A stretch of DNA of 32,000 bases from Paraferrimonas sp. SM1919 (GCF_010993985.1 NZ_WINH01000005.1:34721-66720), one strand, 5' to 3'; shown: positions 5,388-25,192, counted from the first letter of the stretch. Numbers and translations: made by a program. The notes: generated by a model from the sequence alone, not told the origin.

Positions 5388-6002
5388 TTGTCCTTGGCTA
5401 ATCGTGTTTTATTGCTGTTTGCTCATCCAAACCAGAAACATTCACGTCTTAACGTTAAAATGTTTCAGCATGCACAGGCTGTACAAGGGATAACCTGTGT
5501 CGATCTATACGCGTTATACCCTGATCACCGCATCGATGTAGATGCCCAACAAACACTGTTACTTGAACATGACATCGTGTTGCTTCAATTTCCTTTTTAC
5601 TGGTATTCCACTCCATCAATATTAAAAGAGTGGCAGGATCTGGTACTTGAATACGGTTTTGCCTATGGCCATGAGGGTAAAGCATTATTAGACAAAAAGT
5701 TTGTATGTGCTCTGACAGCTGGTGGTAAAGATTCTGCTTACATTGCTGATGGCATTAACCAACATCCGATAAGCGATTTTTTACTGCCATTAAAACAAAC
5801 CAGTAAACTGTGCTCTATGGTTTGGCTGCCACACTTTCAAATTACAAATGCCCGTAGCTTTGATGCAAAACACAAAGTAGCAGAGGTGATTGCTCAATGG
5901 CAGCAATTCTTAGAATATTTAGTCAATACAGAAGATTTTAGCCCGCTTGATAACAGTACCCCGATTAATGGGCAGATCATTAAGGAGCATAATAATGACT
6001 GA
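5388..6002 (+). CDS. kefG: Glutathione-regulated K+ efflux system ancillary quinone oxidoreductase (KefG/KefF family)
   Basis: 204-aa ORF with a TTG start preceded by AACAGGAG. It resembles the flavodoxin-like NAD(P)H dehydrogenase fold of E. coli KefG (VLLLFAHP, LLEHDIVLLQFPFYWYSTPSILKEW). The stop overlaps the start of the downstream Kef antiporter gene. Confidence 0.8.
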   Translation: MSLANRVLLLFAHPNQKHSRLNVKMFQHAQAVQGITCVDLYALYPDHRIDVDAQQTLLLEHDIVLLQFPFYWYSTPSILKEWQDLVLEYGFAYGHEGKALLDKKFVCALTAGGKDSAYIADGINQHPISDFLLPLKQTSKLCSMVWLPHFQITNARSFDAKHKVAEVIAQWQQFLEYLVNTEDFSPLDNSTPINGQIIKEHNND

Positions 6003-16727: not shown

Positions 16728-17603
16728 TTAACTTGGGTCGAGATGAATTATTACTTCAGCCTTAGGAAGTAAAGTTAGAACCCTTAATCGGGCTTGCTCA
16801 CCAATTTCATGGGCATCAATGAGTGGCGTTGTAGCCTCTATCACTAAATGAACTTGGATAAATTGAATATCCGCACTTTGTCTGGTTTTAAGGTCGTGTA
16901 TTTCAATAATTTTGGCGTCTTGGCGAATTAATTTGGTCACTTGCTTAAGCAATGTTGCATCAAGTTGAGTATCCATGAGTTCTGCAATGGCTTGCTTGAT
17001 TAATTGCTGCGATTGTATCGCTAGCCAAATGCCAATAGCTATCGCAAAAAAACCATCTAGCCAATAACCTAAATATTGGCTACTGACTAAGGTCATAATC
17101 ACGCCTAAATTAAGCAGTAAATCAGAACGATAATGTAGACTGTCAGCCTTGATGATGATACTCGCTGTTTTGTTAATGGCGATTCTCTGGACAAGCAATA
17201 AAGCAAGGGTCAAGATGATCGCGACAATACTCACCGTTATAGCCATAGTACTGCTTTGAATTATTTGTGGATCAACAATTTGTCTACCACCATTGACTAA
17301 CAAAATAATGGCGGAACCCGCGAAAAATAGCGCTTGTAATAAAATCGCTAGGGAACCGGCTTTGCCATGACCGAAAGGATGGCCATCATCAGCAGGAGTC
17401 AATATGTAGCGAATAGCAGCAAAGTTAACAATAGCGATTAAGGCATCAACACTTGAGTCCATTAATGAAGCGAGCATCGCAGAGGAATCGGATATTAGCC
17501 AAGCAATCAATTTTATTACCACCAAAGTTAAGGCGGTAAGCACACTAAATATTGAGGCAAATTTTAGCCAAAATTGCTGTGATTGTTGTTTGTTGTAGGA
17601 CAT
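16728..17603 (-). CDS. fieF: Cation diffusion facilitator family metal efflux transporter (FieF/YiiP-like)
   Basis: 291 aa, collinear with E. coli FieF (ADDGHPFGHGKAGSLA, LHYRSDLLLN, HDLKTRQSADIQFIQVHL, EVIIHLDP). Confidence 0.85.
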   Translation of the reverse strand: MSYNKQQSQQFWLKFASIFSVLTALTLVVIKLIAWLISDSSAMLASLMDSSVDALIAIVNFAAIRYILTPADDGHPFGHGKAGSLAILLQALFFAGSAIILLVNGGRQIVDPQIIQSSTMAITVSIVAIILTLALLLVQRIAINKTASIIIKADSLHYRSDLLLNLGVIMTLVSSQYLGYWLDGFFAIAIGIWLAIQSQQLIKQAIAELMDTQLDATLLKQVTKLIRQDAKIIEIHDLKTRQSADIQFIQVHLVIEATTPLIDAHEIGEQARLRVLTLLPKAEVIIHLDPS

Positions 17604-17659
17604 ACATTAGCTTTGTAATGGTTAACTTAATTAACTTACCATCTTTCAATAATTGTTCA

Positions 17660-18523
17660 CTAATTTTTAATCATTTCTATATTAACACCGTGATAATTCC
17701 CCAACACTGCATTATGACTTTGATCACTTCGAGCCTGTCTAGTTATGGGTTTTAATTGGTTTAATGGATAAATCTGGCAGTGCTGATCACTTATGATCAC
17801 CATGGGTAAGGCCGCAGTTTTGGTTAAACGACTTTTATCTGCAAACCAAATATTACTCACCGGCTGGATACTGACAGGGCGGCGATATCTTAATTTTGAT
17901 TCTTTAACGGATACAACCTTGTTGAGCAATTGCTTTATATAAAGTTGCTCTGAAGTTTGTGCCTCTGCGTTTAGTTTTGCAACTAATTGCTGTTTATTGA
18001 CTTTTTGTAAATTGGCTTTATTTACCCAATGGAATCTAACTTTCTGTACATCTTTTTCAATTAAGTGTATTTGTCGATATAGGTGCAAAGTCATTACCCC
18101 GGGAAGGGCATCATGGAGGGCGTCAAAACGAGTGAATCTGTCATGATAATTATCGGTAACAAACACTTTTATTTGATTTTTAACAGCATTGATTCCCTCG
18201 ACTAATGCGTCAAGTTGATATTTTCTTGCTTGTTGATGTGAAAATCTAATGCAACCAGGATATCTTCTGGCGTACTTACCTGATAGCCCATCAATCAATG
18301 TTAAATCTTGATAAGCCTGACTGATTTTTTTATCTGCACCTTGGTCGAGATAACTTTGTTTTATGGCGGTTTGTGACTCTATATTTGTGATTAGGTCATT
18401 TTCCTTATGTTTAAAAAACAGCTCCGTAAACTGACTCTGATGGGGTTGAGCCTGTTCAATGATATCGCCAAATTGCTTGAGATCAGAAGTTAATTGATTG
18501 ATTAATTTGACGAGTTTAGTCAT
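17660..18523 (-). CDS. tus: DNA replication terminus site-binding protein Tus
   Basis: 287 aa from ATG 18523. By-eye alignment to E. coli Tus gives: RFDALHDALPGVMTLHLYRQI...VRFHWVNK vs [21 protein letters not shown]...LRFGWANK. It also gives KLRYRRPVSIQPVSNIWF vs KLKIKRPVKVQPIARVWY. The size is similar (E. coli Tus is 309 aa). I preferred the internal start because it overlaps the upstream gene stop (ATGACTAA) and matches the Tus N-terminus better than the 16-residue extension. Confidence 0.8.
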   Translation of the reverse strand: MTKLVKLINQLTSDLKQFGDIIEQAQPHQSQFTELFFKHKENDLITNIESQTAIKQSYLDQGADKKISQAYQDLTLIDGLSGKYARRYPGCIRFSHQQARKYQLDALVEGINAVKNQIKVFVTDNYHDRFTRFDALHDALPGVMTLHLYRQIHLIEKDVQKVRFHWVNKANLQKVNKQQLVAKLNAEAQTSEQLYIKQLLNKVVSVKESKLRYRRPVSIQPVSNIWFADKSRLTKTAALPMVIISDQHCQIYPLNQLKPITRQARSDQSHNAVLGNYHGVNIEMIKN

Positions 18524-19502
18524 TTTTCTTACCTTGAATGAACTGCTGTATAAGTTGTTGGTTTTGTTCATTTTGTTGACTTAGGCTGGTAATCAATAAT
18601 TGTTGGGCCTGGTTTTCATTTTTGAGTGATGATATTTGTTGGTTTTCGATACGAAGTGATGCATCAGCTTGTTTAAGTTGCTGCGTAAGGTCTTGTAATT
18701 TCTCATTAGCTATTGAATGGTTTAGCGTTAAGTCTTGGATGACTTGCTGTTGTTGAGTTAATTGTTCTTCGAGCTGGTTAACTTTGTCATTAAGATTGTC
18801 ATTGGTTAATTGCAGTTGATGATTATTTTGGTTACTTAAGGATTGTTGCTGTTGCATTTGTTCTATCTTCTGCGATGCCAGATTCAGTTGTTGCAAGTGG
18901 TTTTGTTGTTGCTGTTCAGCATAAGCTTGCAATTGTTGCCTTTCCCGTAAACTTTGCTCGCTAAGGTGTTGCAATTGCCCTTGCATTTGTACGTTGTCTT
19001 GCTGCAATTGTTTATTATGTTGCTGCTGTTGTTGTTGCTTGTCTTGGTGATGCTCCAATTTCAGTTGGAGCTCTTTCAGTTGTGTCTTTAAGTGTTGATT
19101 CTGTTCATTTAAATCTTCAACTTTGGCAGTGGTATGTTCCAAAGCAATCCTTTTCTGTTCGAGTTCAAGTTCACACCCTGCGAGTTTAGCGGTTGTTTTT
19201 GTCACTTCGTCTTGTAAATGCAGTTGTAACTGATGGGCCTCTTGCTCTAATCGTTGCCATTTGAACTGTGCATCTTTTTGTAATTGTTGGTACAAAGATT
19301 CAATCACTTGAATTAGCCCATGGGGTAGGCTAGTGGGTTGTTCATGTTGGTGACGCCACTGCTTAAGCATTGGCGCGATAGTGCTTTTGCTGCCACCGCC
19401 CAACGCATCTCTAACCTTATCTACTGTAGGATTTTCTCCCTTAGCAGCCAGTTCTTCAGCAGCCTGTTTTACCTGTTCGTAAACAATCCCTATTCTTGCC
19501 AT
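18516..19502 (-). CDS. KfrA_N-type DNA-binding protein with a long glutamine-rich coiled coil
   Basis: 328 aa. The N-terminal 50 residues (VKQAAEELAAKGENPTVDKVRDALGGGSKSTIAPMLKQWR) match the plasmid KfrA N-terminal DNA-binding domain pattern (GExPT..KVR..LGGGS..TI...L..WR). The remainder is heptad-like and rich in Q, L, E and N, including a QQQQQQ run. Confidence 0.7.
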   Translation of the reverse strand: MARIGIVYEQVKQAAEELAAKGENPTVDKVRDALGGGSKSTIAPMLKQWRHQHEQPTSLPHGLIQVIESLYQQLQKDAQFKWQRLEQEAHQLQLHLQDEVTKTTAKLAGCELELEQKRIALEHTTAKVEDLNEQNQHLKTQLKELQLKLEHHQDKQQQQQQHNKQLQQDNVQMQGQLQHLSEQSLRERQQLQAYAEQQQQNHLQQLNLASQKIEQMQQQQSLSNQNNHQLQLTNDNLNDKVNQLEEQLTQQQQVIQDLTLNHSIANEKLQDLTQQLKQADASLRIENQQISSLKNENQAQQLLITSLSQQNEQNQQLIQQFIQGKKND

Positions 19503-19588
19503 GGTAATTAACTCACTATTTGTAACGTATTATGTAATATGTAATTATTTTAATTTAAGTGGTCTAATTATACAAATATTTATCATTT

Positions 19589-19622
19589 ATTAGTTTCGAT
19601 AATGTATATTATCGAAATTTAA
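19589..19622. other. Candidate tyrosine-recombinase core site (lox/dif-like, 13-8-13)
   Basis: Sequence is ATTAGTTTCGATA-ATGTATAT-TATCGAAATTTAA. A perfect inverted repeat TTTCGATAAT / ATTATCGAAA lies at 19594-19603 and 19608-19617. The 14 nt ATAATGTATATTAT (19599-19612) are identical to the centre of E. coli dif. The spacer matches 6 of 8 positions of the loxP spacer ATGTATGC. The site lies about 40-70 bp upstream of the Cre-like recombinase gene. Confidence 0.55.
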
Positions 19623-19662
19623 TGAGTTAAAATATGCCGATATAGCTGTACTGTTCGGTACA

Positions 19663-20697
19663 GTGACGAATAGGGATTTTGGCACTCAAATGGCGAAACA
19701 ATCACAACCAGCAATCATGTCTGTTTTTACACAATCACAGCAGCAACTGCCGCAAGCCAGCGCTGTATATCCTGAAGAGCAACAATTGTCAGTAGCCGCA
19801 AAGGAATTGATGAGTCATGGAACTTCTGCAAACACTCGTAAGAGTTACCAAAGTGCTATTAAGCAATTTATTGCTTGGGGTGGCCGTTTACCCAGCAACA
19901 AAATCCAAATTCTTAATTACATTTCAGAGCAATCTCAAAGTTTGAATACTCGCAGTTTAGATCTCCATCTAACGGCTATCAGTCAGTGGCATTATTTGCA
20001 GGAATTCTCCGACCCTGTCCGTTCACCTGAAGTAAAAAAAATAATGCAAGGACTCAGACGGGTTCACGGTAAGCCAAAGCAACAAGCTAAAGCCCTTAGC
20101 GTGGCCGAATTAAAATTGATCTGTGGTTCCTTAGATAATGAAAATTTATCTGCGATCAGAGATAGGGCGATGATTTTAGTTGGCTTCGTTGGCGCGTTTA
20201 GACGAAGTGAGTTAACCGCTATTGATTTTAACGATCTGACGTTCACTGAAGAAGGTTTGCTGATCAAAATCAAAAGAAGCAAAACCGATCAATTTTCCCA
20301 AGGAAGCACTAAAGCTATCCCATATTCTCCTTTTGAGGATTTATGCCCTGTTCGAGCTATGCAAGGGTGGCTAGAGCACGGGAATATTGTCAGTGGAGCG
20401 GTGTTTAGAGGGATAAACCGTTGGCAGCAGCTTTCTGCCAATGCCATCTCAGACACGAGCGTTAACCAAATCTTAAAAAATCGTGCCAAAGCGGCTGGCA
20501 TAAAAGATCATCAATTGCTCAGTGGTCATAGCCTACGTCGTGGCATGGCTACAGAATCTTCAAAAGTCGGAGTGGAATTCAATTTAATTAAGAAGCAGGG
20601 TGGTTGGCGTAGTGATCAGACCCTGTGGCAATACATTGATGAGGGTAAAGCCTTTACTGATAATGCTGCTCACTTGCTATATCAAGCATTTAAGTAA
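19663..20697 (+). CDS. Tyrosine site-specific recombinase, Cre-like
   Basis: 344 aa from GTG 19663; ATG 19690 is an alternative start. Catalytic signature: Arg in GAFRRSEL, Lys in KRSKTDQ, HxxR in GHSLRRG, Trp in GGW and the Tyr nucleophile in WQYI. The C-terminal pattern GHS.R.G.A...G.....I...GGW.......YI parallels Cre (GHSARVGAARDMARAGVSIPEIMQAGGWTNVNIVMNYI). Confidence 0.85.
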   Translation: MTNRDFGTQMAKQSQPAIMSVFTQSQQQLPQASAVYPEEQQLSVAAKELMSHGTSANTRKSYQSAIKQFIAWGGRLPSNKIQILNYISEQSQSLNTRSLDLHLTAISQWHYLQEFSDPVRSPEVKKIMQGLRRVHGKPKQQAKALSVAELKLICGSLDNENLSAIRDRAMILVGFVGAFRRSELTAIDFNDLTFTEEGLLIKIKRSKTDQFSQGSTKAIPYSPFEDLCPVRAMQGWLEHGNIVSGAVFRGINRWQQLSANAISDTSVNQILKNRAKAAGIKDHQLLSGHSLRRGMATESSKVGVEFNLIKKQGGWRSDQTLWQYIDEGKAFTDNAAHLLYQAFK

Positions 20698-20803: not shown

Positions 20804-20841
20804 TAAAAAAAGCATCGATACTGGTGTAATCGATGCTTTTT
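20804..20841. terminator. Bidirectional rho-independent terminator between the recombinase gene and ilvH
   Basis: AAAAAAA-AGCATCGAT-(9 nt loop)-ATCGATGCT-TTTT. The A-tract and T-tract flank a perfect 9-bp stem, so it can serve both convergent genes. Confidence 0.75.
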
Positions 20842-23534: not shown

Positions 23535-24782
23535 TTAGCAATTAATTTTGGGAAGCTGTTGCCAGGAACTTAAATAGCTAGGTGATAAAAAATGACGCTG
23601 CATTTGCCAAGGTCGTTCTCCTACCATGCGGCTAGGGGTAATGGTGTGACGACCGTATTTAGCATTAATTTCATCTACGCAATTCATTAATTGTGGGCAA
23701 TTAGGGTACTGGTTAAACATGTCTTTTTGATAATACTGACTGCTCTCTAATAGGGTTGCTCCTACACCACATTTGTAAAACGGTATGCCTGCTTGATAGA
23801 GATATTTTGCACAGGCTGCAATACTCTGACTGATAACTCGGTCATCATCGAAACCATAGGGGAATTCAATTATTTTACTGCGCCTAACATAATTTTCCTT
23901 ATGGGGTGAGCTATGGGCAAAAAGCAGCATTTTTTTAATTAATAATCTTTGCTTGCGTGCTTTTGTGCATACTTCGACCCCATGACTGACCAATGCTTGG
24001 GTCAGTTCATCAATATTGCTGACGCCCTGACCAAAAGTGCGCGTTGCAAAAATTTGCTGATTTTCCGCTGGCAATTGATCCCATTTTAATACCGCTTGAC
24101 CTTTTAGCTCTAACACGGTGCGAGCTAAAGGCCTACCAAAAGCTCGTCTGATACGCTGAGGTGATTGCTCAGCTAATTGCCAAGCACTATGGATATCCAT
24201 CAGTGCCAATTTCTTAGCCAGTCTACGACCTACGCCCCATACTTGCTCGACTTTCATCTGCTTTAAAATCTGACTACGGCTGATTTCGCCATCAATTACC
24301 GCGACACCACTAAAACCTGATAGCTTTTTAGCCGCATGATTTGCGGCTTTCGCCAAAGTTAAAGTTGGGCCAAACCCAACACCTACCGGTAGCTTCAACT
24401 GTTGCCATATCTGTTTACGTATAGTTAATCCTAATTTGGCAAAACTATGTTGGTATCCTTGATAGTGCTGAAAGCACTCATCAATAGAATACACATACTG
24501 GTTATCACAAAAACTTTGGCAAATGTTCATCATGCGCCGGCTAAGCTCCCCATAAAGGGCATAGTTACTGGAGCGGATCACTACGTTATGACTGGCTAAG
24601 AGCTCCCTGAGCTTAAAGTAGGGCTCAAATTTAGGAATATTAAACTTTCTTGCCAGCGGACAAACCGCACAAATGCAGCCATCGTTATTGGTTAATACCA
24701 CAACAGGTTGGCTGCGTAAGCTAGGATCGAGGCTTTTCTCACAGGAGGCATAAAAACTAATGCCATCAATTAAGGCATACAC
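23535..24782 (-). CDS. umuC: DNA polymerase V catalytic subunit UmuC (Y-family)
   Basis: 415 aa. The N-terminus MYALIDGISFYASCE parallels E. coli UmuC MFALCDVNAFYASCE, and the SIDECF motif is present. It overlaps the umuD end by 13 nt. Confidence 0.92.
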   Translation of the reverse strand: MYALIDGISFYASCEKSLDPSLRSQPVVVLTNNDGCICAVCPLARKFNIPKFEPYFKLRELLASHNVVIRSSNYALYGELSRRMMNICQSFCDNQYVYSIDECFQHYQGYQHSFAKLGLTIRKQIWQQLKLPVGVGFGPTLTLAKAANHAAKKLSGFSGVAVIDGEISRSQILKQMKVEQVWGVGRRLAKKLALMDIHSAWQLAEQSPQRIRRAFGRPLARTVLELKGQAVLKWDQLPAENQQIFATRTFGQGVSNIDELTQALVSHGVEVCTKARKQRLLIKKMLLFAHSSPHKENYVRRSKIIEFPYGFDDDRVISQSIAACAKYLYQAGIPFYKCGVGATLLESSQYYQKDMFNQYPNCPQLMNCVDEINAKYGRHTITPSRMVGERPWQMQRHFLSPSYLSSWQQLPKINC

Positions 24783-25192
24783 GCTTGGATCACCTCTGTT
24801 AATCGTTGCCCAGCATGTATTCTGATTGACGTGCTAATGACACCTTCAATTTGAAATTCATCCCATTCATTGATAGCAACAGGGCCATACTTAGGGTGCG
24901 CAGAACATAATTGCCGTCGTTGTTTATCCAATAGCTTACACACAAAGCTGCCATTATAGTTAGCAACAATAATATCCATATGGACAGCGGTAATGGCTCT
25001 ATCGACTAATAATAAATCACCAGAATAAATGCCAACCCCTTGCATGCTGTCACCATTGGCAATACCAATAAAGGTAGCATTAGGGTGTTCAATTAACAGT
25101 TTATCAAGGGATAAACCGAGTTCTAAATATTGCGCCGCTGGAGATTCAAATCCCGTGATCCCAGCTTCAGCATATAGGGGAATAACCTGCAT
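24770..25192 (-). CDS. umuD: DNA polymerase V subunit UmuD (LexA-like S24 peptidase)
   Basis: 140 aa. It has GFESPAAQY (E. coli GFPSPAADY), the catalytic Ser in GDSM and a Lys in FVCKLL. An SOS box lies upstream. Confidence 0.9.
   Translation of the reverse strand: MQVIPLYAEAGITGFESPAAQYLELGLSLDKLLIEHPNATFIGIANGDSMQGVGIYSGDLLLVDRAITAVHMDIIVANYNGSFVCKLLDKQRRQLCSAHPKYGPVAINEWDEFQIEGVISTSIRIHAGQRLTEVIQACMP

Follow-up and report, generated by a model that had tools for sequence, protein, structure and literature searches.

The window analysed here is a stretch of 32,000 nucleotides from Paraferrimonas sp. SM1919 (GCF_010993985.1, NZ_WINH01000005.1:34721-66720). Between positions 17,660 and 20,697 it carries a segment of three genes, which are tus, a kfrA/tnpT-like helper gene and the gene of a Cre-like tyrosine recombinase. 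By sequence homology, the KfrA-like helper and the recombinase, together with the palindrome between their genes, correspond to the TnpT/TnpS/rst cointegrate-resolution system of Tn4651-type transposons of the Tn3 family. The segment is probably a mosaic of such a resolution module and a captured plasmid-type tus, that is, an old remnant, adapted in its composition, of a transposon like Tn4651/Tn5041 or of a plasmid backbone, and not a terminus device. Both modules are known singly; what is new is their joint arrangement, which is found in one genome. A preliminary description of this DNA had proposed a self-contained terminus module and had regarded the combination as undescribed. The second point can no longer be held, as the KfrA-like protein, the recombinase and the intergenic site together make up a recognizable TnpT/TnpS/rst module.

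Identity of the recombinase and of the KfrA_N helper

In transposons of this type, TnpS is a Cre-like recombinase, TnpT is a divergently expressed helper and the rst site lies between the two genes. The rst site contains both promoters and two inverted repeats, of which the core repeat is the place of recombination by TnpS and the accessory repeat serves TnpT (PMC7157771, PMC4337579, PMC4619425). The recombinase of the window is 33% identical over 298 amino acids to TnpS of Tn4651 from pWW0 (E 4e-53). Its best match among solved structures is Cre (E 6e-8), and it aligns with the complete Cre catalytic set, namely R173, K201, H289, R292, W315 and Y324. It also matches PHROG integrase families. 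With regard to the Xer family, its NCBIfam scores are far below the cut-offs (60 against 220, 48.6 against 329.6, and 40.7 against 335). The identities first proposed for the three products, Tus, a KfrA-like protein and a Cre-like recombinase, are thus confirmed by the Pfam matches (PF05472, PF11740 and PF00589) and by the structural match to Cre.

More than 1500 homologues, mainly from marine Gammaproteobacteria, are 45-49% identical to the recombinase. We inspected 13 homologue loci, made up of the loci of five looked-up proteins together with a plasmid and pWW0. A divergent KfrA_N partner of about 350 amino acids, separated from the recombinase gene by a spacer of about 185-390 bp, was present in all of them (13/13).

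The helper of the window is 39% identical to TnpT of Tn4651 over its N-terminal 84 amino acids (E 7e-12). As this TnpT (L013 9463-10461, pWW0) itself matches the Pfam family KfrA_N (E 2.6e-26), TnpT helpers and plasmid KfrA proteins belong to one family. The helper is also 33% identical over about 215 amino acids (E about 1e-28) to the KfrA_N partners of the homologous recombinases. Its match to KfrA of IncC is weaker (24% identity, E 7e-17), and its N-terminal domain groups with the recombinase-paired TnpT-like helpers and not with IncC KfrA. The helper has the domain architecture of the KfrA proteins of IncP-1/IncU plasmids, which combine a KfrA_N head and a coiled-coil tail, and repeats are present at its own promoter; in the window, no plasmid backbone surrounds it. 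The coiled-coil tail is unusually rich in glutamine, with runs such as QQQQQQ; this produces a strong plus-strand GC and AT skew at 18-19.5 kb, which could mimic a replication-related skew.

The likeness extends to the other members of the Tn4651 subgroup. This subgroup (Tn4651, Tn5041, TnXax1 and TnXocp1) shares with the window a Cre-like recombinase of about 320-340 amino acids and a divergent helper of about 330-350 amino acids, in which a coiled-coil tail follows the KfrA_N head. Also shared is the intergenic region, about 180-200 bp long, where a core inverted repeat is accompanied by second repeats beside the helper gene. In contrast to these transposons, the window lacks tnpA and terminal inverted repeats, its core cannot be aligned with that of Tn4651 rst, being alignable only within a marine-gammaproteobacterial clade, and its tus is probably coupled to the helper gene, an arrangement seen in no relative.

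Two other candidates were rejected. A match on a Xanthomonas plasmid (H33), considered as a TnpS/TnpT pair, consists of a helix-turn-helix protein and a 425-aa integrase and represents another type of Tn3-associated tyrosine recombinase. A 346-aa integrase near the tus of Aliagarivorans is only 21% identical to the recombinase and belongs to a different family.

The intergenic region and the predicted recombination site

The tus and kfrA-like genes diverge from the recombinase gene around an AT-rich spacer. The most likely start of the recombinase is the ATG at 19690, which gives a protein of 335 amino acids and a spacer of 187 bp; the divergent layout around an AT-rich control region described before is therefore correct, except for its length, which had been given as 160 bp. 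The recombination-site-like palindrome noticed there is also borne out. It reads TTAGTTTCGATAA-tgtata-TTATCGAAATTTA, with arms that are complementary at 11 of 13 positions and a 6-bp spacer, TGTATA. The window contains a single occurrence of the string TCGATAA-N6-TTATCGA, compared with an expectation of 0.12.

The distance from the core to the start codon is 87 nt on the side of the tnpT-like gene and 68 nt on that of the recombinase gene. In the Microbulbifer locus L010, a 14-6-14 core is located 90 and 68 nt from the two starts, and the distances are similar in L043 and L044. The intergenic region can be aligned with those of L004, L010, L043 and L044, where the core palindrome occupies the same position. 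The motif shared with these relatives is CGATAA-N6-TTATCG, and the spacer letters differ in every one of them. Because the position and the motif of the core are conserved in the intergenic regions of the relatives, the palindrome, originally termed lox/dif-like, is best read as the rst core of this recombinase family.

The core also resembles the dif site of Escherichia coli. An uninterrupted run of 14 nucleotides, ATAATGTATATTAT, is common to the core (at 19596-19615) and the centre of dif, the TGTATA spacer included; 19 of 28 positions match in total, and the outer arms differ. We treat this identity as the sum of the ATAA/TTAT inner arms, which are shared, and of a spacer that varies among relatives, and thus as partly due to chance. 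Cre/loxP and XerCD/dif belong to the same mechanism class as the system proposed here, in which a tyrosine recombinase resolves dimers at a palindromic site with a 6-8-bp spacer. However, the site of the window is of the 13-6-13 type, whereas loxP is of the 13-8-13 type; a helper protein is present in the window; and the match to Cre reaches only the E-value given above. As for XerCD/dif, the inner arms and the spacer are identical over the 14 nucleotides, but the recombinase is not a Xer protein by the NCBIfam cut-offs.

Next to the start of the helper gene, a block of GTAAC/ATTACGTAAT repeats is also conserved in four relatives without tus whose intergenic regions were aligned with that of the window. 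By analogy with Tn4651 and TnXax1 (PMC4337579, PMC4619425) and with KfrA operators (PMC7821693), the repeats at 19522-19545 are predicted to be bound by the TnpT-like helper. On the recombinase side of the spacer, a GTAC(A) motif recurs in the relatives at the position of the palindrome CTGTAC-N6-GTACAG. This palindrome was considered as a LexA box and rejected on the basis of its spacing.

We infer from these comparisons that the recombinase would carry out strand exchange within TGTATA, the spacer of the 13-6-13 core, and that the helper would bind the GTAAC/ATGTAAT repeats at its own promoter and act as an architectural helper in synapsis. It may also repress both promoters or autoregulate its own expression, in line with what has been described at the rst site of Tn4651 and at KfrA operators (PMC4619425, PMC7821693). 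Recombinase and helper together would delete the DNA located between two directly repeated sites, in a cointegrate or in a replicon dimer. With a single site per chromosome, the only intramolecular substrates would be chromosome dimers or cointegrates with an element that bears a compatible site.

Relatives carrying the recombinase/KfrA_N pair

Among the relatives, the recombinase P0041 is present on 269 contigs, and its pair is located at the end of a mercury-resistance transposon of the Tn3 family with a DDE_Tnp_Tn3 transposase. This transposon was seen in six different flanks. In the five loci aligned at the end, the end sequence GAGGTCCGGCCGG... abuts five different flanks; given the occurrence of P0041 on 269 contigs, the transposon is evidently active and widespread. 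Between the end GAGGTCCGGCCGGTAAAAGCGTTGGATTTAGC and the tnpT-like gene, which are about 450 bp apart, lies a gene of the YnfA family (L005/L006/L008/L009, about 4215 onward; L012). Transposons of the Tn4651 type carry passenger genes beyond tnpT (PMC4619425), and in L004-L012 the YnfA-family gene occupies this passenger position.

Other pairs, found in Microbulbifer and Thalassolituus (L010, L043 and L044), are solo pairs located among ordinary chromosomal genes. They exhibit a perfect or near-perfect 14-6-14 or 15-6-15 core, and neither a transposase nor flanking inverted repeats were found at these three loci. Two Microbulbifer loci have common right-hand neighbours (an MscS-type channel gene and a flavodoxin-like gene), and this is a hint that the pairs reside there stably.

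The solo pairs and the pair of the mercury transposon are the closest to that of the window, with recombinases that are 45-49% identical, the same layout, and CGATAA-N6-TTATCG at the same distances. They differ from it in their arms of 14-15 bp, with the consensus AACC(T/A)(T/G)CGATAA, and in their spacers, and none of them has tus or any other gene coupled downstream of the helper. In complete chromosomes, the pair is found at 4.37 of 5.22 Mb and at 1.50 of 4.16 Mb, which are non-terminus positions if conventional numbering is assumed.

Type and distribution of tus

The closest relatives of the Tus protein beyond SM1919 are only 34-37% identical to it, and the NCBIfam models for Tus match below their equivalog cut-offs. 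The alignment with E. coli Tus (1ECR, E 6e-13) shows that the equivalents of K89, R93, F140, H144, G149 and K175 are conserved. From the Tus-Ter structures, we take these to be DNA-contact and C(6) lock-pocket residues, in which the protein of the window thus resembles both the plasmid Tus of IncC and that of the E. coli Tus-TerB complex. I79 remains outside the aligned stretch, and the region of R198 is located in an alignment gap.

The closest relatives are either plasmid-borne (IncC-like, Aeromonas, Edwardsiella and Xenorhabdus) or scattered in unrelated genomes, and no close relative was found in the metagenome scan. Galli et al. 2019 (PMC6549158) defined a class of 'mobile tus' and found resident tus genes only in Enterobacterales, in Aeromonadales and on the second chromosome of Pseudoalteromonas. 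By the distribution of its closest relatives, the tus of the window matches the mobile class.

The preliminary description had named in advance a lack of co-conservation of the three genes as an observation that would speak against its terminus module, and such a lack is what we observed. No TnpS-like recombinase is present beside tus in any of about 29 related tus loci (27 genomic and 2 plasmid), and no tus is present in any of the 13 loci with a recombinase/KfrA_N pair. As the tus loci lack the recombinase and the pair loci lack tus, the three genes are not co-conserved, and the trio was seen in one genome. A KfrA_N gene adjoins tus in three IncC-like loci only (L002, L026 and L027), and its product is a more distant KfrA. 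The gene order is also reversed: in the window the kfrA-like gene precedes tus and overlaps it, whereas in IncC tus precedes kfrA and a gap separates them. In addition, the tus of plasmid cassettes is preceded by a promoter of its own, in which a Ter-like motif is present, in many cases twice and in inverted orientation; the tus of the window lacks such a motif.

In one IncC-like locus (L002 7028-9866), the genes after tus are a KfrA_N gene, a small open reading frame and a gene encoding a helicase of the UvrD family; in L026 and L027, what was confirmed is the KfrA_N gene adjoining tus. Since transposons of the TnXocp1 type, which encode TnpS and TnpT, carry a DNA helicase II gene (PMC4619425), the association of KfrA_N with a helicase may be recurrent.

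The start of tus is the ATG at 18523, which matches the annotation and the starts of the homologues and replaces the start at 18571 noted earlier. The start codon lies within the 8-nt overlap with the kfrA/tnpT-like gene, and a ribosome-binding site, AAGG, is located just upstream. Because of these two features, tus is likely to be translationally coupled to the helper gene.

Ter sites and the position of the terminus

The mobile tus loci share a strongly conserved 16-nt Ter-like motif, TG[CT]ATGATGGT[CT]TAA, which precedes tus by 60-100 bp and is oriented like the gene. Many of these loci have another copy as well; this second, inverted copy is present 150-270 bp further upstream. Because of its position and of its partial resemblance to E. 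coli TerB (GTATGTTGTAACTAA), which lies upstream of E. coli tus, the motif is very probably the Ter site of mobile-type Tus proteins. Where both copies are present, they resemble a minimal fork trap of two sites that carries its own tus. Previously, Ter sites could not be found in Pseudoalteromonas with the E. coli consensus, and outside Enterobacterales they have been reported as unidentified (PMC7858055).

A matrix for the mobile-type Ter was built from 22 sites, and real sites reach scores of at least 22.6. The best score in the 32-kb window is 12.3, compared with a mean maximum of 13.2 in shuffled sequences. For the E. coli-type Ter, the matrix maximum in the window is at most 12 of a possible 34.5 bits, and the E. 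coli Ter core consensus has 11 matches, compared with 16.5 expected. As the window holds neither known type of Ter, the module is not self-contained for termination, at least for the Ter types that can currently be recognised, and this part of the preliminary description is not supported.

The nonamer TGGTCTAAT in the spacer (19560-19568) matches the right half of the mobile Ter motif; estimated post hoc, the probability of such a match by chance is about 0.03. The site lacks the left half of the motif, and with it the position equivalent to G-C(6), and it scores low with the full-motif matrix. Two other Ter candidates were rejected: the block TTGTAAC near the start of the kfrA-like gene, which is also present in relatives without tus, and the enriched string TGGTYTAA (9 copies in the window, compared with 4 expected), whose copies have no common extended motif and which we take as a composition effect.

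Nothing in the window places the locus at the replication terminus, where it had been supposed to be. The GC skew exhibits no clear switch across the window, no canonical dif was found there at up to 3 mismatches, and the KOPS-like motifs (GGGNAGGG) number three, all on the plus strand, which is no more than expected by chance.

These results bear on the idea of a domesticated, self-contained terminus cassette, in which forks would be arrested nearby by Tus, while dimers of the chromosome or chromid would be resolved at the palindrome by the single recombinase and its KfrA-like partner, so that termination and dimer resolution would be coupled at one place. Such a mechanism is physically plausible, since Cre/loxP placed at the dif position is reported by Leslie and Sherratt (1995) to replace XerCD/dif partly in E. 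coli. The idea would also fit three intact genes with a host-adapted composition, the likely translational coupling of tus to the helper gene, the lock-pocket residues kept in Tus, the 14 nucleotides shared with dif and the 9-nt half match to the mobile Ter motif. However, neither known Ter type is present, the trio was nowhere found to be co-conserved, and recombinase/KfrA_N pairs reside at non-terminus positions in complete chromosomes. Moreover, the site is an ordinary rst core of its family, with spacers that differ among relatives, the window lacks a canonical dif and a skew switch, and the recombinase is far below the Xer cut-offs. We therefore consider a terminus cassette improbable. 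Of the domesticated plasmid or chromid cassette proposed initially, the origin from a plasmid or mobile element fits our results, whereas the function as a terminus device is unsupported.

Composition and synteny

The GC content at third codon positions (GC3) of the three genes is 0.32-0.38, compared with 0.33-0.47 in their neighbours, and their codon usage is host-like. This fits either a long residence or a donor of similar composition. The overall GC content is 0.35-0.40 across 14-20 kb and 0.42-0.46 in the flanks.

The gene located beyond tus encodes a CDF transporter, which scores 337 bits with the NCBIfam model for FieF, for which the cut-off is 420 bits. The neighbour initially named fieF is thus FieF-like; it scores below the equivalog cut-off and lacks the cpxP/cpxRA genes beside it. 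In a comparison at the family level with Ferrimonas and Shewanella, cpxP/cpxRA precede fieF in both, whereas in the window the cpxP side of the CDF gene is occupied by the tus-helper-recombinase segment. Because of this replacement, the segment is located at a synteny breakpoint. In Shewanella, fieF is followed by a GGDEF gene as in the window, so these neighbours look resident. The best match of the CDF transporter is only 47-48% identical, and the genome is thus one without close sequenced relatives. A CDF gene in a flank of the mercury transposon was rejected as kin of that of the window (27% identity, E 2e-4).

The CDF gene starts 56 bp past the tus stop codon, with no terminator between them, and its present transcription may start at the tnpT-like promoter or at one located within tus.

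The low GC content at 14-20 kb, the recombinase at the edge of this region and the matches of the recombinase to PHROG integrase families could suggest that it is the integrase of a genomic island of about 14.4-20.8 kb, which would comprise the MscS-like, DUF1003, GAF-GGDEF, CDF, tus and kfrA-like genes. This is highly improbable. Neither direct repeats of attachment sites nor tRNA genes were found in the 32-kb window, the recombinase belongs to a resolvase-type family whose site is located between divergent genes and not at the ends of an element, the fieF-GGDEF order is also present in Shewanella and thus resident-looking, and the GC3 is host-like.

Origin and possible roles of the segment

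The simplest history would be the capture of tus in the passenger position downstream of tnpT, where such transposons carry their passenger genes, followed by the loss of the transposase side. In this process, the promoter region that bears Ter in the plasmid relatives would have been lost from tus, which would now be co-translated from the message of the helper. We infer this remnant history, as well as the co-translation, from the comparisons above; since the window contains neither tnpA, nor Tn3-type ends, nor plasmid genes, the transposon or plasmid ancestry is deduced from homology.

Several observations weigh against this origin. For Tn3 transposase, tblastn returned only matches with E > 1 in the window, and no tnpA remnant is present. 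No Tn3-type ends were found in the window above the shuffle level, the segment has no flanking terminal inverted repeats, and the window contains no plasmid replication or partition genes. Three intact genes, conserved catalytic and DNA-contact residues, host-like codons and a tight overlap argue for continued selection. The 8-nt overlap possibly also indicates that the TnpT-like protein and Tus are functionally linked, which a remnant does not require. A divergent Tus may recognise another sequence, in which case its cognate Ter could have been missed. Finally, as the genome has no close sequenced relatives (best CDF match at most 48% identical), less weight can be given to the absence of the trio elsewhere than might at first appear.

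The same observations bear on the question of whether the segment does anything at all. It could be an inert, hitch-hiking remnant of a decayed transposon or plasmid integration, without function and intact because too little time has passed. The single rst copy, the lack of tnpA, terminal repeats and Ter, the occurrence of the arrangement in a single genome and the location at a synteny breakpoint would all be expected of such a remnant. We nevertheless regard this as unlikely, given the three full-length open reading frames with conserved catalytic and DNA-contact residues, the host-like codon usage, which implies long residence without decay, and the retention of similar solo pairs in several Microbulbifer species.

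Conversely, the tnpT-like/tus operon could represent a functional coupling, in which Tus, under rst control, acts at or near the resolution site, either via the TGGTCTAAT half-site or via an unseen Ter elsewhere. This is distinctly improbable. If it were true, polar fork arrest would be linked to site-specific resolution in one operon, and fork arrest and Cre-like dimer resolution would be co-localised in a portable termination-plus-resolution unit. It would also be a fourth independent domestication of a plasmid tus, beyond those in Enterobacterales, in Aeromonadales and on the second chromosome of Pseudoalteromonas.

If, instead, the segment is a transposon or plasmid remnant, as we favour, the pairs of a KfrA-like protein and an integrase in many marine gammaproteobacterial chromosomes would be TnpT/TnpS/rst modules, which would clarify their annotation. 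A chromosomal tus outside the three resident clades would then be another scattered mobile copy. The by-products of the analysis, namely a candidate Ter consensus for plasmid-type Tus proteins and the place of TnpT in the KfrA_N family, are perhaps more useful than the main finding.

Other features of the window

The coordinates of the features of the segment and of the related loci are given in Table 1. The Tus, the recombinase and the CDF transporter of the window are each 100% identical to an annotated protein of Paraferrimonas sp. SM1919 encoded on a 192-kb contig. On the ilvIH side, the bidirectional terminator reported before was recovered as AAAAAGCATCGAT-N9-ATCGATGCTTTTT, a perfect 13-bp stem (13/13 complementary) between an A run and a T run. 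The reported absence of flanking repeats, tRNA genes and transposase was also supported by the window searches, in which no inverted or direct repeats were found around the segment.

Table 1 Features of the segment and Ter-like motifs and solo pairs in related loci. Positions without a locus name are those of the window.
Feature	Position	Strand	Remarks
Region of the FieF-like CDF transporter gene	16728-17659		
tus	17660-18523	-	287 aa; plasmid/'mobile' type DNA replication terminus site-binding protein; Pfam PF05472, E 3.3e-37
kfrA/tnpT-like helper gene	18516-19502	-	328 aa; KfrA_N DNA-binding head and Q-rich coiled coil; PF11740, E 3.3e-24
Overlap of kfrA/tnpT-like stop and tus start	18516-18523	-	8 nt, ATGACTAA; read from the sequence and the open reading frame coordinates
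GTAAC/ATGTAAT repeats beside the tnpT-like start	19522-19545		Putative accessory site (TnpT/KfrA operator) and promoter region
TGGTCTAAT	19560-19568	+	9-nt half match to the mobile Ter-like motif; weak, possibly chance
rst-like core palindrome	19590-19621		13-6-13; predicted crossover site of the recombinase
Palindrome CTGTAC-N6-GTACAG	19646-19663		Just upstream of the recombinase start
TnpS-like, Cre-like tyrosine recombinase gene	19690-20697	+	335 aa; PF00589, E 8.9e-15
Bidirectional intrinsic terminator	20807-20841		Between the recombinase gene and ilvH; right border of the module
Ter-like motif pair, L001	5625-5635 / 5897-5907	- / +	
Ter-like motif pair, L002	5734-5744 / 5935-5945	- / +	
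Ter-like motif, L014-L039	About 60-100 bp upstream of tus		
Solo KfrA_N/TnpS-like pair, L010	4750-7011		Solo pairs of Microbulbifer and Thalassolituus (L010, L043, L044)
Solo KfrA_N/TnpS-like pair, L043	4761-7017		
Solo KfrA_N/TnpS-like pair, L044	4559-7101		

The remainder of the window consists of ordinary chromosomal genes, including tamA, kefFC, hrpA, pdxH, a patatin-like gene, ilvIH and umuDC, and no PADLOC defence model has a match in it. The umuDC operon (23535-25192) is found on the right of the module, at a distance of 2.8 kb. On the IncC plasmid of Shewanella baltica, a umuC fragment (DUF4113) is likewise located just upstream of tus (L002 4853-4963), and this parallel is probably a coincidence.

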